Source of the DNA: Candidatus Acetothermia bacterium
GTDB taxonomy: Bacteria > Bipolaricaulota > Bipolaricaulia > RBG-16-55-9
Length of the DNA: 64,000 nucleotides
Direction of reading: 5' to 3'
Assembly: GCA_016201405.1 (NCBI GenBank)
Contig: JACQCZ010000014.1
Span: forward strand, 106,631 to 170,630
A model generated the notes under the pieces. It was given only the letters and a program-made list of their open reading frames with translations. It searched no databases and was not told the origin of the DNA. Made by a program: the position numbers and the translations under genes. Of the stretch, positions 2,210-39,201 are shown one piece after another; the stretch's first letter is position 1; each line of letters begins with the position of its first letter.

Positions 2210-3454
2210 ATCGGGGAAATCTCCGCTCACATCCATAACGTCCAACTCGATGATCTTGGCTGTAAAACCAAGTAGCTCTGCCAGATTTGGATCTGTGCGC
2301 CCGCCATCTCCGGAGATCAGTTCTTTCACATAAAGCCCGCCATCACAGCGAAGCTCTATCATAGCCTCTGTAGGGCTTAACAACTCTCCTTGGATAGAAA
2401 ATAGATAGCGCCATCGCGTCAGGTTGGCGCGGCGATGAAGCACTCGCTCTGGCGTCTGCTGCGAGATCTTTCCAGTCAACTTTGCGAGTGTACCATTAAG
2501 AACGACAGAATTTATCGGCTTCTCGAAAGTCACTTTTGCCCGATACGACTTTTGAGCCTTCCCTTCTTTGATCTCTTCAACGACTTTTCTTGAAACAAAA
2601 TGGAGATCTCCGGCTTCGACTTTTCCGCTGGCAGTGGCGTTGATTTCACTCTTTAATCCAGCAAGTTTCAACGTACGTACTTTGGGGCTCTTAATCTCCA
2701 GCACAAAAGGCCGCCCAGTGCCGAGCATTCGCGCGTCAATATCCTCGCGACCAGCGCCATGAAAGGCATGCTCTTTGCTTTTTGCCGCCTCTAGCACGGG
2801 AGCGGCAATCAGCTCTCCCACGCTCTCTGGGTACTGCTTCCCCGTCCCCTTGCAATGAGCACAGCCCTTGCCTTTGCATTTTCGGCAGGGCCAGATAGTT
2901 TGCGGAATATTTCGTACAAATTTTTGGTACCGCCCATAGATGTAGAGCGAATGAATTTCAATTTCCAGTTTCTTTCGTTCCAAATCGATTAAAAAGACGA
3001 CTTCAGGTTGGTTAAAATCGACGGCAATCTCCCGTCCTGTTACGTTTTGAGCCTGGCCGAATCTCTTGCCCACCAACCGATTGAACTCCTGTTTGAAAGG
3101 CTCCACTTGTTCTTGAGGAATCGCATAGCGACTCCAGAAGCTCTGCTCAGCCCGGACCACATTCTCAGGAGGGCGCGTTCCCACCAGGTATTTTGCAAAT
3201 TCGACTCCTTCAATACGATCGGCAGAGAGCCTGCTCCATTCTGCTACCTGCTCGAATAGATTATTGCAGATTGAGCAGATAGCAGGGCTATCGGGCTTCT
3301 TTCCTGATTCCATCGCATAGAGGACGCGAAGCGCCCTTCCCCGCTCTTCAACGCTAAGAGCCGTACCTAGTTTGGCAAAACAGCGACCTAAGCAGTGATC
3401 GCAAATGACTTCGTTTGCCAAGATCTCTCTTGCCATCTCAATGAGTGGTTTCAT
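2201..3454 (-). CDS. pus10: tRNA pseudouridine synthase Pus10 (archaeal/eukaryotic type)
   Basis: 417 aa; N-terminal CxxC...CxxC zinc motif, a second Cys cluster (CRKCKGKGCAHCKG) and catalytic-looking GREDIDARMLGTGRPF motif. Confidence 0.7.
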   Translation of the reverse strand: MKPLIEMAREILANEVICDHCLGRCFAKLGTALSVEERGRALRVLYAMESGKKPDSPAICSICNNLFEQVAEWSRLSADRIEGVEFAKYLVGTRPPENVVRAEQSFWSRYAIPQEQVEPFKQEFNRLVGKRFGQAQNVTGREIAVDFNQPEVVFLIDLERKKLEIEIHSLYIYGRYQKFVRNIPQTIWPCRKCKGKGCAHCKGTGKQYPESVGELIAAPVLEAAKSKEHAFHGAGREDIDARMLGTGRPFVLEIKSPKVRTLKLAGLKSEINATASGKVEAGDLHFVSRKVVEEIKEGKAQKSYRAKVTFEKPINSVVLNGTLAKLTGKISQQTPERVLHRRANLTRWRYLFSIQGELLSPTEAMIELRCDGGLYVKELISGDGGRTDPNLAELLGFTAKIIELDVMDVSGDFPDLF

Positions 3455-3528: not shown

Positions 3529-4467
3529 TTGCACATTGTGAGTAAGCCGATGGAGTGGTGGAAGTATCTCATTTTGGCGATCTTTGGCATTGGCATTGTC
3601 GAAGGGATTAGGCATTTGGAGACAGAGGCACTTCTAGCGCTCTTCTTAGGATCTTCGTTCGTGGCCGCAACATGGCTCATCACTCGATCTTCAATCGGAG
3701 AGGCGATTGCAGACCGCATTCGCAGCAGCCCAAAAACTCCTTCCATTAGCGATGCGGTTGCAGAGCACATCCGAGGTAAGACTCTGGCGCAGTTGGACAA
3801 GATAGACAGACCCGACCTGATCTCTCAGCCTGACAAACTCTTCTCAAAGGGTGACAAGAAGAAGATTGAGTCAGATTTTCCAGAAGGAATCATCGCCATC
3901 ATGTTTACCGACATGGAGAATTTTACAGGTCTCATCGAGCGTGGCGATGAAGAGGCTTATCGATTGTTGAAGAAACACAACCAAGTCATCCATGAATCGG
4001 CCAAGCAGTGGAAGGGATATGTTGTCAAGAGCTATGGCGATGGCTTCATGGTCGCCTTTCCGAGCGCGCGCCGCGCTGTCTATGCCGCCATCAGCATCCA
4101 ACAGCTTCTGGAGAACCAGAATTGCAATTTGATGGCCGATGAACAGATTCATGTGCGCATCGGCATTGATGCGGGAGAGCCGATCAAAGAGGGCGATGAT
4201 TACATTGGCAGGGCGGTCAACCGGGCAGCCCGCATCTCAGCACTTGCCAGCGGCAAGCAGATCTATGTATCCGACACGGTGAGGCAGCTCGTCGGCCCTA
4301 TCCAAAATCTGCAATACATTGATCTCGGAGACCAGTCGCTAAAAGGATTCAAAGACCAGCACCAGATCTTTGAGATCAGCCGCGTCGAGGCCCTGGCCCA
4401 CCCGCTAGATTCTGAGATTGACCGCGGCATTGCAGAGCTGGAGAAGCGCGTCAACACCGGAAAATGA
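3529..4467 (+). CDS. membrane-anchored class III adenylate/guanylate cyclase
   Basis: 312 aa; N-terminal TM helices, then cyclase core (FTDMENFT...YGDGFMVAF...RIGIDAGEPI). Stop overlaps ruvX start (ATGA). Confidence 0.8.
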   Translation: MHIVSKPMEWWKYLILAIFGIGIVEGIRHLETEALLALFLGSSFVAATWLITRSSIGEAIADRIRSSPKTPSISDAVAEHIRGKTLAQLDKIDRPDLISQPDKLFSKGDKKKIESDFPEGIIAIMFTDMENFTGLIERGDEEAYRLLKKHNQVIHESAKQWKGYVVKSYGDGFMVAFPSARRAVYAAISIQQLLENQNCNLMADEQIHVRIGIDAGEPIKEGDDYIGRAVNRAARISALASGKQIYVSDTVRQLVGPIQNLQYIDLGDQSLKGFKDQHQIFEISRVEALAHPLDSEIDRGIAELEKRVNTGK

Positions 4468-13707: not shown

Positions 13708-14736
13708 CTACATCCCTTTTGCCATTGTTATCTCAGCATTCAAGGCATCTTGCTCTGGCTTCGAGAGACCACCGATAAAGGCCGGGCTAAGATCCGAATA
13801 TGAGCCCACGACAATGATCCCGACCTGTCCCATGGCAAAGTGGAGAGCGCAAAAATACGGATAGCTTCCAGCAGGAGCATCGGCTGGGATTTTCCAGTCA
13901 TAGGTTCCACCTGGCATCAGCGTTCCCGTGTCGAATGAGTTCGCCGTACCGGCTGGAATCCCCTGGGTCTTGCCATTCTGGGCGGAGTAGGCAGTAGCGG
14001 TGTGAGGCATGCTTGCGTCTGTGTTGACGAAGTGAATGGTGTCCCCTGGGCTGGCCTTGACGACCTTGGGATCAAAGACGGCCTTGCCGTCGGCAGTCAT
14101 CAACAAGTCGACCTCAATGGTCTGACCCGTCGGCTTGGGTGTGGTGACCGTGATGGCCGTGGCCTTGGAGGCGTTTGTTCCCTTGTCGTTGTCGGTGACT
14201 GTAAGCGTCACATTGTAGGTGCCTGCTGCTGCGTATGGGTGATGAACTTTTGCACCAGAGCCCTTTGTGTTGTCGCCAAAGTCCCACTGATAGTCCGTGA
14301 TCGTTCCATCTGTGTCCTTAGATGAGCTGCCATCAAAGCTGACGTCGAGTGGAGCATCTCCGCTCGTCTTGTCCGCGGTGAAGGCTGCAGTTGGGTTGGC
14401 GTTCTTGACCGTGATGTTGATCGTAACCACTTTGCCCGCTGCGCCTTTGGCTGAATTTGCGGTCACTTTAACAGGGTATGAACCAGGCTTGTCGTAGGTG
14501 TGGCTAGTGGTGGCCGTGGCAACCTTGTCCGCCTTCTTGCCATCTCCAAAGTCCCAGGAGTAGGTCACGCCCGTTTCTTTGCTGTCCGATGAGGCCGTGA
14601 AGCTCACCACTTTGCTGTCCGTCGTGGCTTTGTCTTTTGGAGCAGTGATTGTTGCAGTTGGAGCTGCTGCGCCACAACCTGTGATGATCAACCCGACTAC
14701 GAACAGACACAAAACGAACGACAGTACTTTACTCAT
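13708..14736 (-). CDS. lipoprotein with two PKD domains and a C-terminal amicyanin/plastocyanin-like cupredoxin domain
   Basis: 342 aa; lipobox LIITGC; two PKD repeats (WDFGDG, YQWDFGDN); type-1 copper ligand pattern H...C-x2-H-x2-M (FCALHFAMG). Confidence 0.7.
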   Translation of the reverse strand: MSKVLSFVLCLFVVGLIITGCGAAAPTATITAPKDKATTDSKVVSFTASSDSKETGVTYSWDFGDGKKADKVATATTSHTYDKPGSYPVKVTANSAKGAAGKVVTINITVKNANPTAAFTADKTSGDAPLDVSFDGSSSKDTDGTITDYQWDFGDNTKGSGAKVHHPYAAAGTYNVTLTVTDNDKGTNASKATAITVTTPKPTGQTIEVDLLMTADGKAVFDPKVVKASPGDTIHFVNTDASMPHTATAYSAQNGKTQGIPAGTANSFDTGTLMPGGTYDWKIPADAPAGSYPYFCALHFAMGQVGIIVVGSYSDLSPAFIGGLSKPEQDALNAEITMAKGM

Positions 14737-14868: not shown

Positions 14869-15501
14869 TTAACCATGGAGTGTTCTCTCTCTTTCTGGCC
14901 AACCTTCTTTCCCTAAAAGAGGCAAAAAGCTGCAGTCGCAGATCTCGCATTTGATGATCTCTCCTGCAGTCTTCTTCACGAGCAAAAGCTTCTGGATTTG
15001 GCGATTCCCCACAGGGATCACCAGGCGGCCTCCTTCACGAAGCTGCTCTACCAAAGAGGCGGGGATTTCGGGTGCAGCGGCTGTCGAGATTATGGCATCA
15101 AAAGGAGCCTTCTCCGCCCAGCCCTGCGTCCCATCTCCGATCTTGTACTGAATATTCCGATAGCCGATTCTGCTGAGGCGTCCCATCGCCTGACGGGAGA
15201 GAGCTGCCAAACGCTCCACCGTAAAGACTGCGGATGCCAGCTCAGCCAAAATGGCCGTTTGATACCCAGAGCCAGTCCCGATCTCCAAGACCCCATCCGA
15301 TGGCTGAAGCGCCAGACTCTCCGTCATTTTAGCCACAATATAGGGCTGCGAGATCGTCTGACCCTCGTCAATCGGCAATGGATAGTTGGCATACGCCTCT
15401 TCCCATCTCTCGGGTGCAATAAACTGGTGCCTTGGGATCATGCCCATCACATTCAATATCCGTTCATCTTGAATGCCCTGAGCTACCAGATGTCCAATCA
15501 T
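14869..15501 (-). CDS. pcm: protein-L-isoaspartate O-methyltransferase
   Basis: SAM-binding motif VLEIGTGSGYQTAILAEL and Pcm-like N-terminus. Start chosen at MIGHL; the ORF extends to 15567. Confidence 0.85.
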   Translation of the reverse strand: MIGHLVAQGIQDERILNVMGMIPRHQFIAPERWEEAYANYPLPIDEGQTISQPYIVAKMTESLALQPSDGVLEIGTGSGYQTAILAELASAVFTVERLAALSRQAMGRLSRIGYRNIQYKIGDGTQGWAEKAPFDAIISTAAAPEIPASLVEQLREGGRLVIPVGNRQIQKLLLVKKTAGEIIKCEICDCSFLPLLGKEGWPERERTLHG

Positions 15502-15604
15502 CAATTTGCGATCCTTCTGAGGCGAACCGCAAAACCCCTCTGCTCCCCTTTGACCATAATTCCTCACCCTTAAATTCTATGGAAGAAGTGGCCACTCTTC
15601 AACC

Positions 15605-15982
15605 TCAGGAAGGTGAACCGGCCGGAGAAGGTCTGGAATTGACGAAATAATGGCGCGTAGACTTGGGAGGATAGAGTTCGCCACTCAACCCCCTCCGAAT
15701 GACCTCGGTCTTTGAAACATGAATTTCGGGGCGGCGCGATTCCAGCTCGACCTCCACCTCATAGTCGACCAATAAACATGGAACCAGGGCGATCCCCAGC
15801 GCTTTACAGGCGGCATGGCGGTGATGGCCATCTAAGATCACATACGTCTCTTCGTCTACCAGTATCGGGTAATCCTGCAAAAGCTCTCCATTTTTGATCT
15901 CTTGAATTGTCCGCGCCAAATTCGTGGGATCCACCTCTTCATGGGGGCGAAGCGTATCGACTGGCAAAGTGGCCCGGGTCAT
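15605..15982 (-). CDS. ParB/Srx-fold (ParB N-terminal nuclease-like) domain protein
   Basis: 125 aa; DGHHR motif in a ParB-N-like context. Stop/start overlap with the upstream thioesterase gene. Confidence 0.45.
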   Translation of the reverse strand: MTRATLPVDTLRPHEEVDPTNLARTIQEIKNGELLQDYPILVDEETYVILDGHHRHAACKALGIALVPCLLVDYEVEVELESRRPEIHVSKTEVIRRGLSGELYPPKSTRHYFVNSRPSPAGSPS

Positions 15983-16452
15983 CTCAGCTCTTCCCGCAGT
16001 TTTAGCTTGTACTCCCGGTGCTTCTTGGCCTCTTCATACTGCATCTTTTCTTCGGCCGTCTCTGGGATGACTGGAGGAATGGCAGTGGGTCGCCCATCAC
16101 TCCCGAGTGCCACGAATGTGAGATATCCCGAAGTCGTCTTTTTGCGCTCGCCCGTCATGGGGTTTTCAGACTCAATAGAGACTCCGACTTCCATGGATGT
16201 CGTGCCGACATAGTGGACTGCAGCCTTAATGACGACGAATTCCCCAATCTGGATCGGGTGCAGGAAGCTGAGGCTGTCAATCGAAGCGGTGACGACGGGC
16301 ATTCGGGCATGTCGCATCGCGGCCACCGCGGCGGCGCTGTCGATCCATGCGACTACAGCGCCTCCGAAGGCGATTCCAAGCGGATTTGCATCATCGGGGC
16401 GCACAATCTGGATCATTTCGACTATCGATTCTCGGACCGGCTTGCCTTTCAT
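15979..16452 (-). CDS. acyl-CoA thioesterase (hotdog fold)
   Basis: Hotdog-fold thioesterase pattern (IVRPDDANPLGIAFGGAVVAWID). Start chosen at MKGKP to avoid overlap with trmY. Confidence 0.7.
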   Translation of the reverse strand: MKGKPVRESIVEMIQIVRPDDANPLGIAFGGAVVAWIDSAAAVAAMRHARMPVVTASIDSLSFLHPIQIGEFVVIKAAVHYVGTTSMEVGVSIESENPMTGERKKTTSGYLTFVALGSDGRPTAIPPVIPETAEEKMQYEEAKKHREYKLKLREELR

Positions 16453-16462
16453 ACTCTTTATA

Positions 16463-17074
16463 TTAGCTGTGGAGAGAGCGGCGATCCAATTCGTTGTGGA
16501 CAACCGAAATGCAGTGATCTGCGTGGAGCACAACGGGGCCTAGGCTCACTTTTGTGCACTCTTTAAGCAGAAGCTCTTCATCGGGCGAAAAATTCTGGTG
16601 ATCGCTGAGCACAAATGCTACTGGCTGCTGAACTGGAGCAGACCGAATGTCAGTGCCGTGCTCATCTAAAACGTGACACAAGATATTGGTCTTTGCAAAG
16701 AATTCTAAAAGCACTCGCAATCCGCGTCTGGCCACATAGACACCAGGGGTGCTCTCTATCTCTTCGGCTTGGTCTGCAATATTCAATCTCTGAGCGCTTT
16801 CGATTGCATGTTTGATGAGCGCGCCCGTGCTTCGCTCATCGGGATTGAGGCGTTTTACTGTTGCGCCATCAAAACGCAGCGTGAGCTGATCCCGCAGAAT
16901 CAAATAGACTGCCACATCCTTGCGAATGCCATGGGAGAGACAGAACGAAGTGGTAATACAGCGCGCCAAGATGTCCATACGCCCGGCACTGCCCGGAAGA
17001 TCATTCAGAGTAAAATCAGGTGTGATGGAAGCTGCATGTCCCAAAATGACAAAGGTTCTCTGGTGATCAATCAT
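16463..17074 (-). CDS. trmY: tRNA (pseudouridine54-N1)-methyltransferase TrmY-like (SPOUT family)
   Basis: 203 aa; motifs LNDLPGSAGRMDILARCI...LSHGIRKDV and C-terminal LHADHCISVVHNELD match the archaeal TrmY pattern. Confidence 0.7.
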   Translation of the reverse strand: MIDHQRTFVILGHAASITPDFTLNDLPGSAGRMDILARCITTSFCLSHGIRKDVAVYLILRDQLTLRFDGATVKRLNPDERSTGALIKHAIESAQRLNIADQAEEIESTPGVYVARRGLRVLLEFFAKTNILCHVLDEHGTDIRSAPVQQPVAFVLSDHQNFSPDEELLLKECTKVSLGPVVLHADHCISVVHNELDRRSLHS

Positions 17075-17172
17075 GAGTTGTTCTTGAGGCTATTCTAGGC
17101 TCTTTTCATGCAGTTTCAACGGGAGAGCGAGTTGCTGCAGATGACGACATCGCGCTAAAATGGAGTCTCGAA

Positions 17173-18018
17173 ATGGAATTCTTAGAGAAGACTCTCTTAA
17201 TGGCCGGGAAAAATTCGAGCTTGCTTTGTGTGGGGCTTGATCCAGAGATAACACAAATTCCTTCTTCTCTTACCCGACAATATGGCGAGAACGCCGTTGT
17301 TGAATTCAATCGAAGAATTATAGAAAACACAAAAGACCTCGTCTGCGCTTATAAACCAAACAGCGCTTTCTACGAGGCGCTCGGTCCGCATGGCCTGGAG
17401 ATTCTGAGAGAGACGCGCAAGCTCATTCCCAAAGGGATCCCCATGATCTTGGACATCAAGCGCGGCGATATTGATAACACCAATCGAAAGTACGCCGAAG
17501 CGGCATTTGATGTTTACAACGCGGATGCCGTGACCCTCAACCCCTATCTTGGACTAGATTCAATTGAGCCTTTTCTTAGCTATAAAGAACGAGGGCTTTT
17601 ATTGCTCTGTCGCACGTCAAATCCTGGCGCAAAAGATATTCAAGACCTGATCTGCAATGGAAAGCCACTCTACCACGTCATGGCTGAGCGAATTCGTGAA
17701 TGGAGCTCGATCAAAAAAACTTTGCAGATTGGGGCAGTGGTTGGTGCAACTTACCCAGCGGAGCTGGTCAGCGTGCGTCAGATTTTGGGCGATGAGCTGA
17801 TCATTCTCGTTCCTGGCGTCGGCAAACAGGCGGGTGAGCTGGAGAAATCCGCAAAGGCCGCAATCAATTCTCAGGGCGAGCGAGCCGTGATCAATGCCTC
17901 ACGCAGCGTCCTCTATGCTTCACCGAATGAGGATTTTGCCGATGCCGCCCGCAGGGAAGCGATGCGCCTGCGAGAGATCATCCATCAGACGATTGAGCGG
18001 GTGACTCAGTCATCTTAA
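17173..18018 (+). CDS. pyrF: orotidine 5'-phosphate decarboxylase (long type)
   Basis: 281 aa; LCVGLDPE, KPNSAFYEALG and MILDIKRGDI motifs. Confidence 0.9.
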   Translation: MEFLEKTLLMAGKNSSLLCVGLDPEITQIPSSLTRQYGENAVVEFNRRIIENTKDLVCAYKPNSAFYEALGPHGLEILRETRKLIPKGIPMILDIKRGDIDNTNRKYAEAAFDVYNADAVTLNPYLGLDSIEPFLSYKERGLLLLCRTSNPGAKDIQDLICNGKPLYHVMAERIREWSSIKKTLQIGAVVGATYPAELVSVRQILGDELIILVPGVGKQAGELEKSAKAAINSQGERAVINASRSVLYASPNEDFADAARREAMRLREIIHQTIERVTQSS

Positions 18019-18064: not shown

Positions 18065-18316
18065 ATGGCCCAGTTGATCATTGAATACTGCCATGAGTGC
18101 ATGTTTTTGGGACGAGCCATCGAGGTCGCTCAAAAGGCACTTCATCATTACCCTGATGCTTTGGAGTCGGTGACTCTTATCCCTGGCTCAAATGGAGTCT
18201 TTACGGTGATGCTTGATCATCTGCCCATTTACACAATCAATGAAGAAGGATTATTGCCATCTTCAGACCAAGTCCAAAATCTGCTCGCAAAGAAGCTAGG
18301 AGCGAAGCTCGCATGA
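18065..18316 (+). CDS. SelW/Rdx family thioredoxin-like protein (Cys-containing homologue)
   Basis: 83 aa; IEYCHEC (CxxC) at the N-terminus and LIPGSNGVF pattern of the Rdx family. Confidence 0.7.
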   Translation: MAQLIIEYCHECMFLGRAIEVAQKALHHYPDALESVTLIPGSNGVFTVMLDHLPIYTINEEGLLPSSDQVQNLLAKKLGAKLA

Positions 18317-18885
18317 AGAAGAGCACCCGAGCCTTATTTCTTGGGAGATTTCAGCCCTATCACAATGGCCATGATGCGGTCATCCGCAAAATCACGGCAG
18401 AAGTAAACGAGCTGATCATCGCGGTTGGCTCAGCTCAATACAGCCACACTCTGCGCGATCCTTTTACCGCCGGTGAGCGCATTATGATGATCACCCGAGC
18501 TCTGGCTGGCCTGAAGAGCACAAAATATGTCTTGCCCATCGAAGATATTGAGCAAAACGCGCTTTACGTTGCGCATATTCGGCGCCTCACACCCGCGTTT
18601 GATCTTGTCTATTCCAATAATTCACTTGTGATCCGGCTCTTTGAAGAGGCTGGCATTGCCGTAAAACAGCTTCCTCTCATTGATCGTGGCCATCTCTGGG
18701 GAACGAAGATTCGTGACCTAATGACCCAGGGCGGCCTATGGCAAACGTACGTGCCCCCTGCCGTATGCACAATCATTGAAGAGATCGGCGGAATCGAGAG
18801 GCTGCAGCAGATCCAGCAGAGCGATCTGCTCAGTACCGGCCCTTCGAGCAGTGCCTCCAGTCCGAGAAGAGGGGAGTCCGATTGA
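18313..18885 (+). CDS. nadM: nicotinamide-nucleotide adenylyltransferase, archaeal NadM type
   Basis: 190 aa; hallmark GRFQPYHNGH plus IAVGSAQYSHTLRDPFTAGER. Start overlaps upstream stop. Confidence 0.85.
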   Translation: MKKSTRALFLGRFQPYHNGHDAVIRKITAEVNELIIAVGSAQYSHTLRDPFTAGERIMMITRALAGLKSTKYVLPIEDIEQNALYVAHIRRLTPAFDLVYSNNSLVIRLFEEAGIAVKQLPLIDRGHLWGTKIRDLMTQGGLWQTYVPPAVCTIIEEIGGIERLQQIQQSDLLSTGPSSSASSPRRGESD

Positions 18886-19993: not shown

Positions 19994-20030
19994 CTTTCAA
20001 CCAACATCGCGGGCGCGAGCGGAGGCATTG

Positions 20031-21905
20031 ATGAGGGGGGCATTATTTCGCTGGATTCTGAGAGTTCTATTCTCTCTTCTTCTGGTCCTCTCCTTCGCTT
20101 ACCAAACTGGGCTTGCAGATGTCAGTCTAGATGTCGAAGTGGGCTTTGGAGGCCAATTCATGTCCGGCCAGTACACTCTCGTCCAGGTCGTCTTGCAATA
20201 TCAGGGCCCGCCTCTCACGGGAGAGCTGGCACTTCACCAAGAGTACAAATCTCCGCTCGAGAGCGAGAAGTCCTTTTCTGAGCGGCGCACGGTGCGCCTG
20301 GGCTCAAATGTCAACCAGCTCTATCAATTCTATTTCCCCGTCTCCCGCTCTCCCTGGCCCAATGAGGATCAGCCCGCTCTCTCCATCACGCTCTCATCCA
20401 ATGGGAGCGTGGTATTTTCGAAGCGCGTTCCCCTCGCCGGCGACGTTGAGCCACAGCCGCTCGTGCTCGGAGTGAGTGAGACCAACTTTCCCCGCATGCT
20501 CACGACAGGAGAGCGGATAGAGAGCGTGGGACTCAATCAGCTGCCGGAGGACTGGCGAGGATATGACGGAGTGAGAAGAATCTATCTGGGCCGCGCGAGA
20601 ACCGACCAGCTCACCAAGCGCCAACAAGACGCGATCCAGCAGTGGATCACACGGGGCGGAGAATTCGTGGTGCTCGGCGGTGAGAATTTCTACTTGCAGG
20701 ATTCTTCGTGGCTGCGCCAGATCATTCCGTTTGATGTCTCAGGAATCGAAGCGGCACAGGCCTCGTCCGATCTGCCCACGTATGTTGCAGGCAAGCCTCT
20801 CGGGGAAGTCCTCATTCAGCGGGCTGCGATCCCACTTCTGGTAGAGCAGCGGGTCGTCAATGGCATCATCTTCTTTTCCGTGCTCGACTTATCACAGCAG
20901 ACGGAATTGTCTCAAGCCATCTGGAACGACTTGCGGCAGACCTCTTCTCTGCTCGACAATCAGCCTCCTGATCTGGGCTCAAAGATTTTGGGAAACACCC
21001 AGCTCGCTTATCCATCAAAGCCGCTCCTTGGCGCTCTGTTGATTCTTTATCTAATAGGCTTTGCCTATATCAGCCTTTGGATGCTGCGGCAGCCCCTCAA
21101 CACCTTGCTCTCCTCTCCCGAGGGCGGTGAGATGCGCAGAAAGAGGCAGGGCTGGAAGGTGCTCGCCTTTGTTGTCGGCTGGATGCTCATCTTTGCAGTC
21201 CCGAGCCTTGCCTATCTGGGCCAGCCCAGATTTCACAGTTATTTTCAGTCTCTTGAGGTCGGGTTGATCAGAGCCCAGGAGGGATCGTCCTGGGGCTGGA
21301 GCCAGAGCTGGTACAGTGTCATCTCCAAGAAGGAGCGCAGCCTCTCGCTGGCAGCCAGCGACAACTCTCTCATCCTGCCCCTGGGGCAGACGCAGCTGGA
21401 ACTGCTGCAAGAACGCCCCGATGCGTGGGATTTGGACTTTTCACCCAACCCTATGAAAAGCTGGTCCACAGAGAACCTCTATACCGAAGAGATGGTGCCG
21501 CTTGACATCGGCGTACGCGCGGACAAAGAGGGTGGAGATGTCAGAGGCTCTCGGATTCAGGTCTATAATGGCAGCCAATGGAACCTGCGGGATGCCGTGC
21601 TCTTTCGCAACGGAGTCTATTATCCCATCGGAGAGGTCCCAGCCGGAAAGTCGCTCACCGCTGAGCTTAGCGGTCTGGGACTCAATGAGTGGTCACCATG
21701 GAGTGGCTTCAAAGACCTCTGGAGCATCGAGGAGCGGGTGAAGAATGTCATCATGAATCAGCTCGGGATTACGGATGAATTGAAGAGGGATCGCAGCCAA
21801 TGGGTCTTGCTCGGCTGGGCCGAAGTTCGCGCGCTGACTCAGGCTTACCGCGAAAATCGTCAGGGACTTTCACTCATTCTCATTCGCTCCAAGGAGCAAG
21901 AGTAG
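20031..21905 (+). CDS. hypothetical exported/membrane protein, first gene of the MoxR-VWA operon
   Basis: About 624 aa; N-terminal signal peptide, two central TM helices, no recognised catalytic motif. The ORF formally starts at TTG 20028. Confidence 0.5.
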   Translation: MRGALFRWILRVLFSLLLVLSFAYQTGLADVSLDVEVGFGGQFMSGQYTLVQVVLQYQGPPLTGELALHQEYKSPLESEKSFSERRTVRLGSNVNQLYQFYFPVSRSPWPNEDQPALSITLSSNGSVVFSKRVPLAGDVEPQPLVLGVSETNFPRMLTTGERIESVGLNQLPEDWRGYDGVRRIYLGRARTDQLTKRQQDAIQQWITRGGEFVVLGGENFYLQDSSWLRQIIPFDVSGIEAAQASSDLPTYVAGKPLGEVLIQRAAIPLLVEQRVVNGIIFFSVLDLSQQTELSQAIWNDLRQTSSLLDNQPPDLGSKILGNTQLAYPSKPLLGALLILYLIGFAYISLWMLRQPLNTLLSSPEGGEMRRKRQGWKVLAFVVGWMLIFAVPSLAYLGQPRFHSYFQSLEVGLIRAQEGSSWGWSQSWYSVISKKERSLSLAASDNSLILPLGQTQLELLQERPDAWDLDFSPNPMKSWSTENLYTEEMVPLDIGVRADKEGGDVRGSRIQVYNGSQWNLRDAVLFRNGVYYPIGEVPAGKSLTAELSGLGLNEWSPWSGFKDLWSIEERVKNVIMNQLGITDELKRDRSQWVLLGWAEVRALTQAYRENRQGLSLILIRSKEQE

Positions 21906-21907
21906 CG

Positions 21908-22666
21908 GTGTCCGCGCAAGAGCGCGCATCAGTAGCCAATCCCAAGAGCACTGCCCCGAAAATCCCTTGGCTGGGAACCGATTGGGACTACTGGTTCGAC
22001 CGCGAGACGTGGTCATCCCTGATGGCGTTTCTTCTGCTGTCGGGAGGCATCTTGCTCGTTGCCTTGCCGAACACAACCGAAGTCGGCAGGCTCACTCCCA
22101 AATCCATGGAAGCGACTGATCTCTTCTCGGCCCTCTATTCAATCTTATTTGGGATTCTGGCGATCACGCTTGGACAGGCCGAGTTGTCTTGGGGACATCG
22201 GCTCAGCAGCCAGGAGCATTTTGTTCATCTATTTAGCCGTCTGGTGGTGCCGCTGGTGCTCAGTCTGCCCTACTGGATTCTTTATATCTTCGCCAATATC
22301 ATGAGCCCACTTTTAATTATTGTACTCCTTGTGCATTTTATTTTATATGGTTATGTGCTCGGGCTTTGCGGCTGGCGGCTATCGCTGATGGGGCAGTCCG
22401 AGATCTTCCAATTCAACATCAAATATCTGAGCTACTTTGGGCTGGTCGCGATTACCTTCTTTGCTGCGCCGCTCCAGTTCATCAATCCCATCTTGGCGAT
22501 CACGGAGATTTTGGGGGAGAATGGCATGGCTCCCGCACTCAATCTGTTGGGCTTCTATACCGCATGGCTGGCGCTGGGTGCGGTCATAGCGTACTTGATC
22601 TTGCACAAACTGAATACGGAGAATCGAGAAATGGAGGAGTATGAAAACGAACTATCTCGTCGTTGA
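21908..22666 (+). CDS. hypothetical polytopic membrane protein
   Basis: About 253 aa with about 6 predicted TM helices; GTG start immediately after the upstream stop (the ORF track begins at 21800, overlapping the previous gene). Confidence 0.45.
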   Translation: MSAQERASVANPKSTAPKIPWLGTDWDYWFDRETWSSLMAFLLLSGGILLVALPNTTEVGRLTPKSMEATDLFSALYSILFGILAITLGQAELSWGHRLSSQEHFVHLFSRLVVPLVLSLPYWILYIFANIMSPLLIIVLLVHFILYGYVLGLCGWRLSLMGQSEIFQFNIKYLSYFGLVAITFFAAPLQFINPILAITEILGENGMAPALNLLGFYTAWLALGAVIAYLILHKLNTENREMEEYENELSRR

Positions 22667-24380
22667 GCAAGAGGTGATTGAGGCGCGGCGGCGGTTGAAT
22701 CGCCTTCAGGGTGTGCGGCTGGGGTTGACTCTCTCAGCCTCGCTGACGCTCGTCTATCTCATTCTCTTCTTCTTTGGCTGGGTACAGTTGATTCAGCCCT
22801 GGCCGATTCTCATTCTCTTTAACGCCATCTGCGGCGGACTCGGCATGATGTGGGGAGATCGGCGTCCAACGCGCCTCCAGCACGACCTGCTCCGTGTCGA
22901 CCGCGCGCTAGGGCTTGGCGAGAAGCTCACGACGATCTTTGAGCTTCGCCGGGGTGAGCGCTCATCCGACATCTTGGAAGCCCTCTATCGCCGGATTGAC
23001 CAGAGCCACGTCGATCCCAAAGAAGTCTTCAAGCTCCCCCGCACGGAGCAGAATGGCTGGTATGCGCTCGGCGGGATCACTGCCGGCATCTTGCTGATGA
23101 TCGGGCTTTGGGGGAATGGCCTCAGTCTCCTCCATATTGAGCAATGGCTCCAAGGTCTGCCGATAAATGAGCTTTCCAGTCAACAGACTCTCCTGGGTAA
23201 AGATGCACTGGATGGCTCACAAAGCGTTTTAGGGAAGGGCCAGAATCAATCGAATGCCAAAGATAAGAAGAGTGATGACGCAGCCTGTGAAAAGCAAGAC
23301 TCTTCTTCAACAGCCCTGAGCAGCGATGCAAATTGCGTCAATGGCAGAGATCAGAATTCACCTACAGATTCGCAAAATCAGACGGCGAAGAATCAAAATG
23401 GCCAGAATATGCCGCCAAACTTTCCACAGAGTCTGTCCGATTTGCTGCAACAGCTCCAGCAGGGGAATATCTCACAAGATGAAGTGCAAAAAGATCTGAG
23501 CAGCCTCGCCAATCAGCTTCCGCCAGGCCTGTTGCAAGATATGCTAAAAGACGCAGCAAAGAGCATGGATCCTGCTGACCTTGCGAAGCGGCTGGCCGAT
23601 GCCCTCAAGGAAGCACAACGTCAGGATGAGAACCAGAAGAAGCGGGCTCAATCCAATGACAAAAATGACAACCAGCCCTCTCCTCAAGGGGGCCCAGGCT
23701 CCAAAGGCCAGGGGATCCCGGGTATGGCCTCTGGAGACCAATTGGCAAATCAGAATCAAAACAACTCGAATAAATCAGGCACAGAAGCCCCGAACAGCGG
23801 GAGCTCTTCCTCACAATCCGGTGAGAACCCAGATCAGCCCAAAGGTGGGGATCAGTCAAACCAGTCTGGGCAGGCCGGGGGCAAGCAGGGCAGCAGTGAC
23901 TCCCTCTCCCAGAATGGCAAGAGCAAAAATGACTCACCCGACAAGAAAGATGAAAACGGGAAGAGCTCTGATGGCTCCGGCACGAACGACGGATCCAATA
24001 ACAGCGGAAGTAGTAGCGGCTCCCCTGAAAGCTCATCGGATGACGAGGGCTCTGGTGGCAAAGACTCATCGGGTGGCAATGGAGCCGGTGACACCGCTGG
24101 AAATGGCAAGGATGGGAAGAAGGATCAGTCTTTGACCATGGATAAGAGCCTGCTCATCCACGGCGCCAGTCTTCCGCAGGATGCTGAGCAGCTCAAGCGG
24201 TTAATTACGCTTGGATTGCCCGTGGATTTGCAAGGCACTCAAGCCGATGGGACACCCACGCTCAAGCTCAATATCGAGCGTGTCGAGTCGCTGCTCCAGC
24301 TCCGCGAGCTTCCCCCCAATCTGAGAGCGCTGGTCCGGGCCTATTTCTTGGCTATCGCCGGAGAAAAATCGTCCAAATAA
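22641..24380 (+). CDS. hypothetical membrane protein with a roughly 300-aa Q/N/S/D/G/K-rich disordered region
   Basis: 579 aa; N-terminal TM helices, third TM near residue 150, long low-complexity polar segment, conserved-looking C-terminal 80 aa. Start overlaps upstream stop by 26 nt. Confidence 0.5.
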   Translation: MKTNYLVVEQEVIEARRRLNRLQGVRLGLTLSASLTLVYLILFFFGWVQLIQPWPILILFNAICGGLGMMWGDRRPTRLQHDLLRVDRALGLGEKLTTIFELRRGERSSDILEALYRRIDQSHVDPKEVFKLPRTEQNGWYALGGITAGILLMIGLWGNGLSLLHIEQWLQGLPINELSSQQTLLGKDALDGSQSVLGKGQNQSNAKDKKSDDAACEKQDSSSTALSSDANCVNGRDQNSPTDSQNQTAKNQNGQNMPPNFPQSLSDLLQQLQQGNISQDEVQKDLSSLANQLPPGLLQDMLKDAAKSMDPADLAKRLADALKEAQRQDENQKKRAQSNDKNDNQPSPQGGPGSKGQGIPGMASGDQLANQNQNNSNKSGTEAPNSGSSSSQSGENPDQPKGGDQSNQSGQAGGKQGSSDSLSQNGKSKNDSPDKKDENGKSSDGSGTNDGSNNSGSSSGSPESSSDDEGSGGKDSSGGNGAGDTAGNGKDGKKDQSLTMDKSLLIHGASLPQDAEQLKRLITLGLPVDLQGTQADGTPTLKLNIERVESLLQLRELPPNLRALVRAYFLAIAGEKSSK

Positions 24381-24402
24381 ATCTCATTCAACGAGGGATA
24401 TC

Positions 24403-25389
24403 ATGACCATCGAGATGCAACTGGCAAAAACAGAAGAGGTCTTCCAGAAGCTGACGCGTGACATTCAGAAAGTTATTGTCGGCCACCAGGAGACTATCCG
24501 GGGGACGCTGATCTGCCTGCTCTGTGGCGGGCATGCTCTTCTCGAAGGCGTACCCGGGCTCGGCAAGACCCTCACCGTAAAGACGCTGGGTAAATTATTG
24601 GGGCTCTCTTTCTCCAGAATTCAGTTTACGCCCGATCTCATGCCCGCAGACATTTTGGGAACCAATATCATTGTGGAAGAGGGAGGCCGGAGGGCCTTTG
24701 AGTTTTCAAAGGGCCCCATCTTTGCCCATATTGTGCTGGCGGACGAGATAAACCGCGCCACCCCCAAGACGCAATCTGCGCTCCTCGAAGCGATGCAGGA
24801 GCGCGGGGTCACCATCTCCGGCAAAACTTATGTACTGGACGAGCCATTTATCGTTCTGGCCACGCAGAACCCCATCGAGATGGAAGGCACATATCCTCTG
24901 CCTGAGGCACAAGTAGACCGCTTCTTCTTCAAGATTGTCCTCGATCAGCCGACGCAAGAAGAGCTGGACGAGATTCTCAAGCGCCACATGACATCACCGG
25001 AAGTGAAGCACATCGCCGGAAGCGCCATCTCGCGCGAGACTCTAGTCGACGCAAAGAAGCTGATGGCTCAGATCCCTATTGCGGAGCCGTTGCGCCATTA
25101 CATCGTGCGGCTGGTCAATGCCACGCATCCCAAGCGGGATGAGGCAGCTCCGCTGGTCAAAGAATACGTCGAATATGGAGCGAGCCCGCGCGCTGGCATC
25201 GCCCTTCTCTGGGGCGCAAAGGCCAATGCATTCTTAGATGGCCAATTGAACGTTCGCATCGAAGATATTCAGCGCGTCTTTGTGCCTGCATTCCGGCACC
25301 GAATCATCCGCAACTTCCGGGGCGAGGCGGAGGGCATCGCCGTCGATGAGATCTTAAAACAAGTGATCGAGAAGACTCCCGAGGTATAG
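24403..25389 (+). CDS. MoxR family AAA+ ATPase
   Basis: 328 aa; Walker A GVPGLGKT, Walker B VLADEINR, and the MoxR sensor region. Confidence 0.9.
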   Translation: MTIEMQLAKTEEVFQKLTRDIQKVIVGHQETIRGTLICLLCGGHALLEGVPGLGKTLTVKTLGKLLGLSFSRIQFTPDLMPADILGTNIIVEEGGRRAFEFSKGPIFAHIVLADEINRATPKTQSALLEAMQERGVTISGKTYVLDEPFIVLATQNPIEMEGTYPLPEAQVDRFFFKIVLDQPTQEELDEILKRHMTSPEVKHIAGSAISRETLVDAKKLMAQIPIAEPLRHYIVRLVNATHPKRDEAAPLVKEYVEYGASPRAGIALLWGAKANAFLDGQLNVRIEDIQRVFVPAFRHRIIRNFRGEAEGIAVDEILKQVIEKTPEV

Positions 25390-25395
25390 CGGCAC

Positions 25396-26268
25396 ATGCC
25401 CCTTCTGCTCGATTCAGCCTATCTCAAAAAGCTCGAAAACCTGGGTCTGGTCATTCGGGGGCGCTTTCATGGCTATATGACCGGAAAGCGGCTCACTTCC
25501 CGCTCCGGGATGAGCCTGGAATTTGCTGAATACAAAGAATATTCGCCGGGGGATGATTTTCGCTATGTAGACTGGAATCTCTATGGACGCCTTGGGAAGC
25601 TCTTTGTCAAACGCTTTAACCGCGAAGAGGACGTTCCGATCTATCTCTTTTTGGACATTAGCCATTCGATGGCCATCGGAGAAAAGCTCAATTACGCCGT
25701 TCTGCTGGCGGGCACGCTGGCCTATTTAGGACTGAAAGAATTCAATCGCGTCGGGATCTTTCCGTTTGCCAGCGATCTGGCTCTCGGCGTGCCTCCCAAA
25801 GGGAGCTACAAACAGCTCTTCCAGATCTTCCATTTCTTAGAGAAAGTCGTGCCAGCGGGAGAGACCTCCATCAATGAGTCCCTGACGCGCTTTACGCGCA
25901 TCCGCCGTGAGAGCGGGCTGGCCGTCATTATCAGCGACATGCTCAGCGAGGATGGCTTTGAAGAGGGACTGGCACAGCTCCTCTATCATGGCTATGAGGT
26001 GATCGTCCTTCATCTGTTGGCTCCCGATGATTTGAATCCAGCGTGGAATGGCGAGATTCGCCTCAAAAATATTGAAGACCAGAAGGAGATTACAGTCCAT
26101 GTGGATCGCGCTGCGCTGAACGAGTACCAGACGGCCTTGGATAATTATCGTTCAAGACTGGAAGCATTCTGTCGTGAGCGCGGCATCCGCTATGCCCTGG
26201 TCTCTACGGACAGCCCTCTTGAGAAGACAGTCTTCGAGACCTTGCGGGAAGGGGCGCTGGTTCAATGA
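25396..26268 (+). CDS. DUF58 domain protein (MoxR partner)
   Basis: 290 aa; DUF58 signature YVDWNLYGRLGKLFVKRF and LFLDISHSM; directly downstream of MoxR. Confidence 0.85.
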   Translation: MPLLLDSAYLKKLENLGLVIRGRFHGYMTGKRLTSRSGMSLEFAEYKEYSPGDDFRYVDWNLYGRLGKLFVKRFNREEDVPIYLFLDISHSMAIGEKLNYAVLLAGTLAYLGLKEFNRVGIFPFASDLALGVPPKGSYKQLFQIFHFLEKVVPAGETSINESLTRFTRIRRESGLAVIISDMLSEDGFEEGLAQLLYHGYEVIVLHLLAPDDLNPAWNGEIRLKNIEDQKEITVHVDRAALNEYQTALDNYRSRLEAFCRERGIRYALVSTDSPLEKTVFETLREGALVQ

Positions 26269-28154
26269 CCTTTCTATCGGGCATTGCGCTCTGGCTTCTA
26301 GGCCTTGGTGCGATCATCACATTTATTTATTTCTTAAAGCGCCAGGCGCGGGTGCAGCCCGTCTCGACGCTCTTTCTCTGGCAAAGGATTGAGCAGAGGC
26401 CCCAGAGCGCGCTCCGTTTTCAGTGGACCCAGCTCCTCGGGCTCATCTTGCAGTTACTGGCTCTCACAGCCATTGTGGTGGGGATTGCCCAGCCGGTGAT
26501 CTACTCTGCCAGCGGCGGTGTGGGACGAATGGCCATTCTGCTCGATGGAAGCGCCAGCATGCGAGCGCTCATGCCTTCTGAAAAGATCACACGCTTTGAG
26601 CGGGCCGTACAGCGGGCTCAAGGGTTGCTCGATGAGAATCCGGCTGCCGAGGTGACCTTGGTCGAGGCACAGACGCACAGCGCAATCCTTGTACCGCCTA
26701 CCCATGATCATTCCTTCATTCGCAAGGCTCTGAGCGACGCCAGGCCGACGTATCAGGGGAATGCTGACTCGGGCGAGCTGCTCAGCCTTCTTCAAAGTCA
26801 GAGCAGCACAGGCTATGACCAAGTTGTCCTGATCAGCGATCAAGCTGCCAAGCCGCAGCAGCAGCAATTGGGGATTGATGTTGAGTCCGTCTTGGGAGAT
26901 GAATCTTCTGAAAATATTGCCCTTACGGACTTTTCTGTGCGTGAGCAGCCCAATGGCAAGGGGTATGACTTCTATCTCCAAGCCTGGAACTCATCGAGTG
27001 ATGCAGTAAACGTTCCGCTGGATATAGAAGCCGATGGGAAATCCGTCCAGTCGGATGTGATCACCATCCCCGCGCATGGCTCTCTCTCACGAACTTTCTC
27101 ATCGTCGCTTCGCTATGCGGATGAGTTTCGAGCCAAGATCGATACCACGGCTCTTCCCGACGACTGGAGCGATGATGACGTACGCTATGCGACATCTCCA
27201 CAGCCACCCCCCTGGAAGATTTTATGGGTAGGCAAGATCAATTTTTATCTAGAGAGCTTTTTGCAGAATTCAGGAGAGGTTGACCTGACCGAGAAGGCGA
27301 CCCTGGATGAAGCGGGAGATCTCAACCGCTATGACGTGGTCCTGCTCAATCAAGTCGATCTTTCGGATGCTCAGGCTGGCGCGGGTCATTATCTGGCATT
27401 TGGCGGCTCTTTTGGAAGCTATATCCTCTCCAAAAGCATTCATGATCTGACGAGTGGCGCGGTGGATGTCCAGAAAGATGACCCACTCTTGCAAGGGATG
27501 GACCCGACCGCTTGGCGACTGCTCCACATTCCGGACGCGGCCGTCGATCCCAAGGGAGAGGTCTTATTATCTTCCGAGAGTCTTCCGTTTCTTTATATTT
27601 ATGAGAAGCCGGGTCTGCGGCTTTCGTATATCGGAGCCGATTTGGAGGCTTCCAATCTTGTATTGTCGATTGATTTTCCAATACTGATCTATCGTCTGCT
27701 CTCTTGGCTTTCTCCCCGCTCTGGGGAGAGCACAACGCTGACGGCTGGAGACGAGCTTCCGCTATCATCATTAGAAAATATAAAGAGCATTGTCGATCCG
27801 CAAGGCAAGACCTGTCAATACAATTCTTCCGCAAGCCAGTGCGGCAGCTTGGGCGAGATCGGTTTCTATCAGGCCACGCGAGCCGATGGAGAGGCCGTGA
27901 CTTTCGCCGCCAATGCGGATCCAACAGAGTCTATTTGGGAGGATGCTTCGGATGCGGCTGCAACTGCAGTGACTCCGACGAGCTCACAGCAGGCAGGGTC
28001 ACTGGGCGACACGCCGCAAGCGTTAAAAGCGGCGATCCCTGTATGGCCCTATTTGCTGGCGATTGGATTGATCTTATTACTGGCTGAGCTCTTCACATTT
28101 CACCGTCCAACGGCAATTCCATGGCTGCCCTCCCTGGGGAGGAAGAGGGCATGA
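26265..28154 (+). CDS. BatA-like membrane protein with VWA domain
   Basis: 629 aa; N-terminal BatA-type TM region, MIDAS-like DGSAS motif, C-terminal TM helix. Start overlaps upstream stop. Confidence 0.7.
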   Translation: MTFLSGIALWLLGLGAIITFIYFLKRQARVQPVSTLFLWQRIEQRPQSALRFQWTQLLGLILQLLALTAIVVGIAQPVIYSASGGVGRMAILLDGSASMRALMPSEKITRFERAVQRAQGLLDENPAAEVTLVEAQTHSAILVPPTHDHSFIRKALSDARPTYQGNADSGELLSLLQSQSSTGYDQVVLISDQAAKPQQQQLGIDVESVLGDESSENIALTDFSVREQPNGKGYDFYLQAWNSSSDAVNVPLDIEADGKSVQSDVITIPAHGSLSRTFSSSLRYADEFRAKIDTTALPDDWSDDDVRYATSPQPPPWKILWVGKINFYLESFLQNSGEVDLTEKATLDEAGDLNRYDVVLLNQVDLSDAQAGAGHYLAFGGSFGSYILSKSIHDLTSGAVDVQKDDPLLQGMDPTAWRLLHIPDAAVDPKGEVLLSSESLPFLYIYEKPGLRLSYIGADLEASNLVLSIDFPILIYRLLSWLSPRSGESTTLTAGDELPLSSLENIKSIVDPQGKTCQYNSSASQCGSLGEIGFYQATRADGEAVTFAANADPTESIWEDASDAAATAVTPTSSQQAGSLGDTPQALKAAIPVWPYLLAIGLILLLAELFTFHRPTAIPWLPSLGRKRA

Positions 28155-38766: not shown

Positions 38767-39201
38767 TCACCTCTTAGCACACTCTTGACAGACTGATGAT
38801 CCTTTGTCAACCACACGTCCGCATTCGCGGCAATTGGACTTCAAATCTTCGTAACAGTTGGGGCAGATGGCATGCTCACGGCCAACCGGCTTTCCGCAGT
38901 GAGGGCATTTGGAGGTAAATGAAAGGTTAAACTTTGAGGCCTTCTCTGCCAAAGGCTCAGGATAGGCGCGCAGCCAGATGGCGATCTGTCTGCTGGCGCG
39001 GAACGAGAATGGAACCCAGAAAAAGGCAAAGATGACCCAACTGATCCATTCTAAGATGGGGGTCAGCTCGCGGGCAAAGAGAATTCCAACCCAGATCAGC
39101 AGCCAAAAGGGGAGCCAGCGAAGCCAGCCACCTCCAAACCACGAGATCGAGCAGATTCTCCGCTCAGATCTTCTCTCGCGTCTCCACGTGCGATAGCTCA
39201 T
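38767..39201 (-). CDS. membrane protein with C-terminal zinc-ribbon
   Basis: Tryptophan-rich TM helices followed by four CxxC pairs (CPHCGK, CPNCYE, CRECGR, CQEC). Start uncertain; the ORF extends to 39255. Confidence 0.5.
   Translation of the reverse strand: MSYRTWRRERRSERRICSISWFGGGWLRWLPFWLLIWVGILFARELTPILEWISWVIFAFFWVPFSFRASRQIAIWLRAYPEPLAEKASKFNLSFTSKCPHCGKPVGREHAICPNCYEDLKSNCRECGRVVDKGSSVCQECAKR

Follow-up and report, generated by a model that had tools for sequence, protein, structure and literature searches.

In a 64,000-nt stretch of the genome of Candidatus Acetothermia bacterium (contig JACQCZ010000014.1; this whole stretch is called the window below), we found genes for two enzymes known from archaea, the tRNA (pseudouridine54-N1)-methyltransferase TrmY and the tRNA pseudouridine(54/55) synthase Pus10. 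With a probability of roughly 0.8, the two proteins are functional and make up a two-step pathway to N1-methylpseudouridine at position 54 of tRNA (m1-pseudouridine-54) in a bacterial phylum. In the proposed pathway, Pus10 would first isomerise uridine 54 (U54), and also U55, to pseudouridine, and TrmY, a dimeric SPOUT-class enzyme dependent on S-adenosylmethionine (SAM), would then methylate N1 of pseudouridine-54 to give m1-pseudouridine-54. We infer from the gene sequences which nucleotide is targeted, that the enzymes are active and that the host tRNA contains m1-pseudouridine.

The modification of tRNA positions 54 and 55 is treated as a domain-level signature: Bacteria and eukaryotes carry ribothymidine-54 (T54), made by TrmA or TrmFO, together with pseudouridine-55, made by TruB, and most archaea carry pseudouridine-54 or m1-pseudouridine-54 via Pus10 and TrmY. 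In the archaeal pathway, Pus10 makes pseudouridine at both 54 and 55, after which TrmY methylates N1 of pseudouridine-54 with SAM, and the resulting m1-pseudouridine-54 is a structural equivalent of ribothymidine-54 (PMC7912444, PMC9508554). According to reviews, Bacteria have neither Pus10 nor pseudouridine-54, and TrmY is listed for archaea alone (PMC7912444, PMC9508554, PMC6380271). A deep-branching bacterial phylum in which both archaeal enzymes are fixed and kept by purifying selection departs from this rule. The pathway would also offer a natural experiment on whether m1-pseudouridine-54 and 5-methyluridine-54 (m5U54) are interchangeable, and would be a case of both enzymes of a two-step RNA-modification pathway crossing domains.

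TrmY family membership and fold

In the six-frame list of open reading frames (ORFs), trmY occupies 16463..17074 (minus strand); it begins with ATG, and these coordinates take in the stop codon. A first-pass annotation, made from the letters and the ORF list alone, had called this ORF a TrmY-like SPOUT methyltransferase on the strength of three motifs; its coordinates were exact, and all three motifs are in the translation, DLPGSAGRMDILARC at residues 25-39, LSHGIRKDV at residues 46-54 and LHADHCISVVHNELD at residues 183-197.

The profile search that had been proposed as a check of the TrmY/DUF358 assignment bore it out. The Pfam family PF04013 (Methyltrn_RNA_2, formerly DUF358) matched residues 6-199 over profile positions 2-196 of 198 with E=7.4e-50 and 169.9 bits (cutoff 25.5), and Pfam gave nothing else for this protein at E≤1. 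The sole NCBIfam match was NF002560, the equivalog model for tRNA (pseudouridine(54)-N(1))-methyltransferase TrmY, with 221.2 bits (cutoff 183) over residues 6-200 of 203. RlmH and TrmD-like enzymes had been named as the competing assignments; neither Pfam nor NCBIfam returned an RlmH (PF02590), TrmD (PF01746) or SpoU-family match at E≤1.

Solved structures and the predicted fold agree with the profiles. By sequence, the closest structures were Methanocaldococcus jannaschii MJ1640 (3AIA/3AI9; E=2e-39) and Archaeoglobus fulgidus AF_1056 (E=5e-32), and a profile built from 42 homologues ranked the structures alike, with MJ1640 at E=1.6e-53. An AlphaFold2 model built on the alignment of these 42 homologues reached a mean pLDDT (predicted local distance difference test) of 91.5 and a pTM (predicted template modelling score) of 0.91. 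In a Foldseek search against the PDB, the model superposed on 3AI9/3AIA with a template modelling (TM) score of 0.86-0.88, a root-mean-square deviation of 2.4-2.5 Å and 32-36% identity; AF_1056 and the bacterial DUF358 protein VC_A1059 ranked after these, and the TM score against 2QMM was 0.82. The next family was Nep1/Emg1, with a TM score of about 0.65 and 11-17% identity, and TrmH, RlmB and RsmE-type SPOUT proteins followed at 0.5 or less.

A misreading of some other SPOUT enzyme (RlmH, TrmD, TrmH or Nep1) as TrmY is conceivable in so far as the knotted core is common to all SPOUT enzymes and Nep1, RsmE and TrmH-type structures did appear as distant fold matches. Nep1/Emg1 moreover belongs to the same superfamily and performs the same N1 methylation of pseudouridine. 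However, only PF04013 was matched in Pfam and only the TrmY model in NCBIfam, no profile assigned the protein to Nep1/Emg1, whose substrate is small-subunit rRNA, and the Nep1 superposition falls well behind those with the TrmY structures. Such an identity is refuted by the Pfam, NCBIfam and Foldseek results, and its probability is negligible.

Beyond the fold, the window protein is about the size of MJ1640 (COG1901/DUF358/PF04013), about 200 aa, and like it a single-domain SPOUT protein; the motifs DLPGSxGRxDxLxRC, PDER and LHA(D/N)HC are found in both. The N-terminal DLPGSxGRxDxLxRC is also carried by AF_1056 and archaeal TrmYs. Among the 42 bacterial homologues, D25, G28, G31, R32, D34, L36 and R38 are invariant in this region. 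Towards the C-terminus, C188, N194, L196 and D197 are invariant in the same set, H184, A185, D186 and H187 occur in at least 90% of its members, and the AlphaFold2 model has a helix at 185-202. Of the C-terminal knot-region motifs, which build the cofactor pocket of SPOUT enzymes, LHADHC is kept, and the archaeal GDH reads SDH in the window TrmY and in 16 of 16 bacterial members. Apart from its bacterial host, the window TrmY thus differs from MJ1640 in having SDH for GDH and a deletion of the four-residue G-x-P-x-P-P segment after residue 63. Haloferax volcanii also has a TrmY orthologue.

The remaining alternative within PF04013 is that the protein belongs to the bacterial DUF358 subgroup of unknown function typified by VC_A1059 of Vibrio cholerae (PDB 2QWV) and is no true TrmY. 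VC_A1059 is likewise a PF04013 protein from a bacterium, and it has the same fold (TM score 0.81-0.84). The window protein is nevertheless far nearer to MJ1640 than to VC_A1059, to which it is only weakly similar (E=7e-13, about 25% identity). The N-terminal TrmY motif DLPGSxGRxD does not occur in VC_A1059, where the site of DLPGSAGRMDILARC reads DEIGGKCHTEILAHC, and GDH or SDH is replaced there by TDH. In the tree described below, the bacterial clade nests within archaeal TrmYs and VC_A1059 is the outgroup, its place at the root being an assumption and not a result. In addition, Pus10 co-occurs with the window TrmY. The structure matches, motif comparison and tree essentially refute a VC_A1059-type identity, which we regard as very improbable. 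By every testable sequence and structure criterion, the window protein is a member of the TrmY family.

The Pus10 partner and the predicted pathway

As the first-pass annotation had noted, pus10 lies about 13 kb from trmY, at a distance of 13,009 bp and on the same strand. Its product scored 491.7 bits against the TIGR01213 equivalog model (cutoff 200) and contains the Pus10_C and archaeal Pus10 THUMP domains of Pfam, PF22023 and PF21238 both matching. We judged its equivalence to M. jannaschii Pus10 (MjPus10) by published residue numbers and by alignment to human PUS10. The key residues of MjPus10 are the catalytic D275, R273, D277, Y339, I412/K413, L440, H376/R377 and four Zn cysteines (Joardar et al. 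2013, PMC3753934). The window Pus10 shares the Zn-Cys4, THUMP and catalytic domains and has the same or an equivalent residue at all seven catalytic-core positions. Besides the R-x-D-x-D motif and the H-R thumb hook listed in Table 1, it has Y304, V376-K377 (with Val for Ile) and L404, and its Zn cysteines are C18/C21/C60/C63.

Two elements distinguish an enzyme acting at position 54 from one restricted to position 55. In MjPus10, removal of the forefinger elements ffl1 (from C227) and ffl2 (from C238) kills pseudouridine-54 synthesis and spares pseudouridine-55 synthesis, and the pseudouridine-55-only Pus10 of Pyrococcus is without both; the thumb hook H376/R377 favours pseudouridine-54, and the Pyrococcus enzyme reads N-S there (PMC3753934). 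In the window Pus10, the distances from C190 and C201 to D238 are 48 and 37 residues, identical to those from C227 and C238 to D275 in MjPus10, so that the forefinger region is of full length. Across 38 bacterial Pus10s, all determinant residues except D240, which is present in at least 90%, are invariant, including R236, D238, the four forefinger cysteines and H340-R341; the forefinger cysteine cluster is also found in Pus10 of Methanosarcinales and Halobacteriota. We infer from these residues that the window Pus10 is a dual pseudouridine-54/55 enzyme. As in archaea, TrmY is thus paired with a Pus10 bearing the pseudouridine-54 determinants. Six contigs recur by size in the match lists of both TrmY and Pus10 (488165, 121680, 97813, 90701, 67439 and 32527 bp), which suggests that the two genes share contigs in other members of the phylum.

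With TrmY intact and Pus10 retaining its determinants for position 54, the earlier reading of the pair as consistent with a complete two-step pathway stands. Archaeal TrmY is inactive on uridine, prefers pseudouridine before U or pseudouridine, and needs only an isolated T-arm (PMC7912444, PMC13171889). The window contains no tRNA genes and gave no Rfam matches; tRNA genes in a related metagenome-assembled genome (MAG) have standard G53-U54-U55-C56-R57-A58 T-loops.

Several points weigh against the pathway. Since M. jannaschii TrmY acts promiscuously on pseudouridine-U sequences in vitro (PMC13171889), the target is not deducible from TrmY alone. Pseudouridine-54 has been stated to be absent from bacteria (PMC6380271), and neither pseudouridine-54 nor m1-pseudouridine is known from bacterial tRNA by biochemistry or mass spectrometry. 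The bacterial clade has Ser for the Gly of GDH and is without the four-residue G-x-P-x-P-P segment. TruB and TrmA/TrmFO, if encoded, would compete for U54 or leave only some tRNAs to the pathway, which is the situation in humans. Finally, the Pus10 tree is poorly resolved, with support values of 48% and 12%.

Some of these points could be accommodated by the same chemistry with another scope, in which TruB and TrmA/TrmFO are kept and Pus10 and TrmY act on a subset of tRNAs or on other RNA with pseudouridine-U, for example rRNA. Human PUS10 provides a precedent, making pseudouridine-54 in selected tRNAs only, beside TRUB1 and TRMT2A (PMC6380271), and M. jannaschii TrmY methylates pseudouridine in many pseudouridine-U contexts both in vitro and in human cells (PMC13171889). 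The SDH motif and the four-residue deletion could mean an altered substrate. On the other hand, the window Pus10 keeps every determinant of the dual MjPus10 type acting on all tRNAs, and MjPus10 expressed in E. coli acts on essentially all tRNAs and outcompetes TrmA even at basal expression (PMC3753934). TrmY also scores above its equivalog cutoff. We therefore consider a restricted or different scope unlikely, and favour the canonical two-step pathway at tRNA position 54.

A stronger version of the pathway is that the whole phylum (Bipolaricaulota/Acetothermia including Fraserbacteria) has swapped TrmA/TrmFO and TruB for the archaeal Pus10/TrmY pair, a tentative proposal to which we give somewhat less than even odds. 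The phylum has the two archaeal genes in intact and fixed form, an observation that says nothing on the loss of TruB or TrmA/TrmFO. No match to TruB, TrmA or TrmFO was obtained among the scanned window ORFs of at least 150 aa, a result that is uninformative genome-wide as the window covers 64 kb of a genome of roughly 2 Mb; the supplements of PMC6092417, on Acetothermia genomes, make no mention of pseudouridine, TruB or Pus10. If full replacement were true, the tRNAs of the phylum would carry m1-pseudouridine-54 and pseudouridine-55, as the first case of pseudouridine-54 or m1-pseudouridine-54 in bacterial tRNA and a mirror image of the bacterial RumA-type enzyme of Thermococcales. As cited in PMC6380271, the RumA-type tRNA (U54-C5) methyltransferase of Thermococcales came from Bacteria (Urbonavicius et al. 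2008). By that account, the two cases are alike in the cross-domain transfer of an enzyme for T-loop position 54 with a change of the domain-typical modification; they differ in that the Thermococcales transfer ran from bacteria to archaea and concerned one enzyme, against the two enzymes of a complete pathway here.

Bacterial host, distribution and origin of the two genes

The host belongs to the bacterial phylum Acetothermia/Bipolaricaulota. The window encodes an alanyl-tRNA synthetase (AlaRS; 46757-49450) that scored 875 bits against the bacterial model TIGR00344 (cutoff 457) and failed the archaeal model (401 bits, cutoff 745), and it further encodes RuvX, a bacterial-type peptidyl-tRNA hydrolase (Pth) and ribosomal protein L25/TL5, with prs, L25 and pth in a cluster, as well as BatA and MacB/FtsX-type genes. 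TrmY and Pus10 are each 100% identical to NCBI records so named and labelled [Candidatus Acetothermia bacterium]. Among GTDB species genomes, the nearest trmY loci are in two Bipolaricaulota MAGs (62-63%) and in Candidatus Fraserbacteria RBG_16_55_9 (61%). The gene order of the Fraserbacteria locus, pyrF / trmY / thioesterase / ParB-like / pcm / PKD-cupredoxin / DUF1028, matches that of the window at 50-72% amino-acid identity, with 57-72% along the thioesterase/ParB-like/pcm string. The stored Fraserbacteria trmY has a short X run (masked or N bases) at about 4330-4345 of its locus (L002), where this reference copy is incomplete.

In a binning or assembly artefact, archaeal DNA with trmY and pus10 would have been misjoined to a bacterial genome. 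Both genes are otherwise archaeal hallmarks, and an archaeal-type nicotinamide-nucleotide (NMN) adenylyltransferase is encoded 1.2 kb from trmY. Against this, RuvX, Pth, L25/TL5 and the bacterial AlaRS are encoded between and around both genes on one contiguous sequence, the trmY neighbourhood recurs in the independent Fraserbacteria MAG, and the bacterial clade has sequence signatures of its own. In GC content, GC content at third codon positions (GC3) and codon usage, trmY and pus10 do not stand out from native genes such as alaS, pth and pyrF, and no signal of recent transfer was found in this comparison. The matches listed for each protein fall into more than 100 distinct 90%-identity clusters, and all organism names listed are Bipolaricaulota, Acetothermia or Fraserbacteria, the TrmY list also holding unclassified JGI labels. 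Because of the bacterial genes, the named records and the gene order shared with Fraserbacteria, a mis-binned or chimeric archaeal fragment is excluded for practical purposes.

Since the host is bacterial, the description of the pathway as rare in bacteria was apt, and the reviews cited above go further still, stating that Pus10 is absent from Bacteria and TrmY archaeal only. The pair is widespread across Bipolaricaulota/Fraserbacteria and no oddity of one genome: the best 120 matches of TrmY and of Pus10 were all at least 48-51% identical, and the named sources among them were Bipolaricaulota, Bipolaricaulia, Acetothermia and Fraserbacteria. The host being bacterial, TrmY is not confined to archaea; that criterion describes the distribution of the family, not its function.

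For TrmY, we built a neighbour-joining tree of 38 named sequences (190 columns, 300 bootstraps), with VC_A1059 assumed as the root. The 16 bacterial sequences formed one clade with 98% bootstrap support, nested among sequences of Methanosarcinia, Methanotrichales, Syntropharchaeia and Halobacteriota; those of M. jannaschii, A. fulgidus, Methanofastidiosum and Bathyarchaeia lay further out, and support for the immediate sister group of the clade was 10-40%. All 16 bacterial TrmYs have SDH, versus GDH in 21 of 21 archaeal ones, and all 16 have the four-residue deletion after residue 63, where the 21 archaeal sequences compared carry the G-x-P-x-P-P segment, in a version one residue shorter in a few TrmYs of Methanotrichales type. 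The tree and these signatures fit a single old transfer of trmY from a euryarchaeon, probably of Halobacteriota type, into the phylum, whose ancestor would have acquired the gene and whose members would have inherited it since under purifying selection.

One further TrmY was found on a contig labelled 'uncultured Thermotogaceae bacterium' (L006, CAYSZC010000043.1; trmY at about 3602-4180). It has SDH and the four-residue deletion and groups tightly with that of Bipolaricaulota SKW192, and pcm lies nearby; either the contig is mis-binned, or trmY was secondarily transferred into Thermotogota.

The history of Pus10 is less sharply drawn. Searched against 1.84 billion cluster representatives at 50% identity, Pus10 had 545 matches at E≤1e-30, among which the nearest named archaeal clusters were Methanosarcinales (47%), a DPANN MAG (46%), Halobacteriota (45%) and Halobacteria (44%). 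The neighbour-joining tree, sampled from the 50% representatives, is star-like, with a core bacterial group (48% support) beside Methanosarcinales, Halobacteriota and Halobacteria, a placement compatible with an origin in the same region of the archaeal tree as TrmY. A second, divergent Acetothermia/Bipolaricaulota lineage of Pus10 (P0365/P0533/P0536; MFP4588751.1 and others) is 39% identical to the window Pus10 and lies outside the core bacterial clade; it could be a separate acquisition or a long-branch artefact. As the tree is star-like and this second lineage stands elsewhere, we do not claim that Pus10 was acquired only once or that its donor was also that of TrmY. The phylogeny suggested in the first-pass annotation thus upheld acquisition from archaea for TrmY, and for Pus10 it was compatible with it at the low support given above.

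At the level of databases the identification is not new, since the NCBI pipeline already names TrmY and Pus10 correctly, and practical novelty is limited, the family being well characterised with mechanism and annotation in place. A full-text literature search returned no paper pairing Pus10 or TrmY with Acetothermia, Bipolaricaulota or Fraserbacteria, and none reporting a bacterial Pus10. The implied biology appears to be unremarked in the literature searched and contradicts the review-level statements. Strain J31 (PRJNA1344826), reported as a member of the phylum in pure culture and with its genome closed (bioRxiv 10.1101/2025.11.21.689855), makes the predicted bacterial m1-pseudouridine-54 directly and cheaply testable.

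Gene neighbourhood and other genes in the window

The coordinates of trmY, pus10, their sequence features and the genes downstream of trmY are collected in Table 1.

Table 1. Positions in the window of trmY, pus10, their sequence features and adjoining elements.
Feature	Coordinates	Strand	Basis or remarks
trmY, tRNA (pseudouridine54-N1)-methyltransferase, SPOUT fold	16463..17074	minus	203 aa; ORF list, PF04013, NF002560, 3AIA match, AlphaFold2 model
TrmY N-terminal motif DLPGSAGRMDILARC, residues 25-39	16958..17002	minus	common to MJ1640 and AF_1056
TrmY S157-D158-H159, clade-specific form of archaeal GDH, C-terminal knot region	16598..16606	minus	the same in all 42 bacterial homologues
TrmY C-terminal motif LHADHCISVVHNELD, residues 183-197, start of last SPOUT knot helix	16484..16528	minus	aligned with MJ1640 LHANHCITIIHNVLD
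pus10, tRNA pseudouridine(54/55) synthase, 417 aa	2201..3454	minus	TIGR01213, Pus10_C and archaeal Pus10 THUMP
Pus10 catalytic motif R236-E-D238-I-D240	2735..2749	minus	aligned with human PUS10 GREDVD; equals MjPus10 R273/D275/D277
Pus10 forefinger-loop Cys cluster C190-x2-C193-x4-C198-x2-C201	2852..2887	minus	full length, no Pyrococcus-type deletions
Pus10 thumb-loop 'hook' H340-R341	2432..2437	minus	equals MjPus10 H376/R377
Context genes downstream of trmY, co-oriented, outside the pathway	14869..16452	minus	family profile assignments
Hotdog thioesterase	15979-16452	minus	downstream of trmY, profile match
ParB-like domain protein	15605-15982	minus	downstream of trmY, 125 aa
pcm	14869-15567	minus	downstream of trmY, profile match
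Promoter-like candidate TTGAAA-16-TAGAAT just upstream of trmY ATG	17092..17119	minus	consensus scan 10/12, weak evidence

Upstream of trmY, the divergent pyrF (17173-18018) is separated from it by a 98-bp gap. Downstream, the longest mechanical ORF of the hotdog thioesterase begins at TTG 16533 and would reach 71 nt into trmY; the thioesterase homologues in two related genomes (L001 and L002), however, align from the Met at 16452, and with this start a 10-nt spacer, TATAAAGAGT, follows the trmY stop codon. The earlier statement that trmY overlaps neither neighbour is thus correct with the thioesterase start placed at Met 16452, and does not hold for the longest ORF. Spacers along the trmY-thioesterase-ParB-like-pcm string are short (10 nt, a 4-nt overlap and 37 nt), so trmY and the three downstream genes may be co-transcribed. 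The promoter-like site ahead of trmY is only a candidate, because the number of such sites in the region (3) is not above that in shuffled sequences (1.7 ± 1.4).

The ParB-like protein had no Pfam match, and its best NCBIfam match was to the N-terminal part of the archaeal ADP-dependent serine kinase SerK, at 57.9 bits and so well short of the cutoff; its gene is kept at the same position in the Fraserbacteria locus. Further downstream, a secreted protein with two PKD domains and a C-terminal plastocyanin/azurin-type copper-binding domain (13708-14736, minus strand) is encoded beside DUF1028, as in Fraserbacteria. On the other side of trmY, the NMN adenylyltransferase gene mentioned above (18313-18885, plus strand; TIGR01527 arch_NMN_Atrans, 213 bits, cutoff 181) adds a further gene of archaeal character to this bacterial genome, and the Rdx/SelW-like gene before it (18065-18316) runs 4 nt past its start.

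The window encodes two proteins with class III adenylate/guanylate cyclase domains (3529-4467, plus strand; 42172-43011, minus strand), one of them directly upstream of pus10 and divergent from it. A long co-oriented block on the plus strand (20028-30721) begins with ORFs of 625 and 579 aa that have no Pfam match and an ORF of 288 aa, followed by a MoxR AAA+ ATPase (24403-25389), DUF58 (25396-26268), BatA/VWA (26265-28154) and an 866-aa double-VWA protein (28121-30721); it resembles a Bat/MoxR-type aerotolerance-like cluster with unannotated upstream genes. On the minus strand, at 38767-40066, the gene of a bactofilin-domain protein (39164-40066) overlaps that of a double-zinc-ribbon protein (38767-39255), and this may have a bearing on the unusual morphologies, prosthecate or toga-like, that have been reported from the phylum. 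An 837-aa protein (52441-54954, plus strand) carries a VWA domain at its N-terminus and, after it, about 600 coiled-coil residues, with many weak matches to coiled-coil families including DUF7310, and its gene adjoins one for a PD-(D/E)XK/Cas4-like nuclease (51550-52245).

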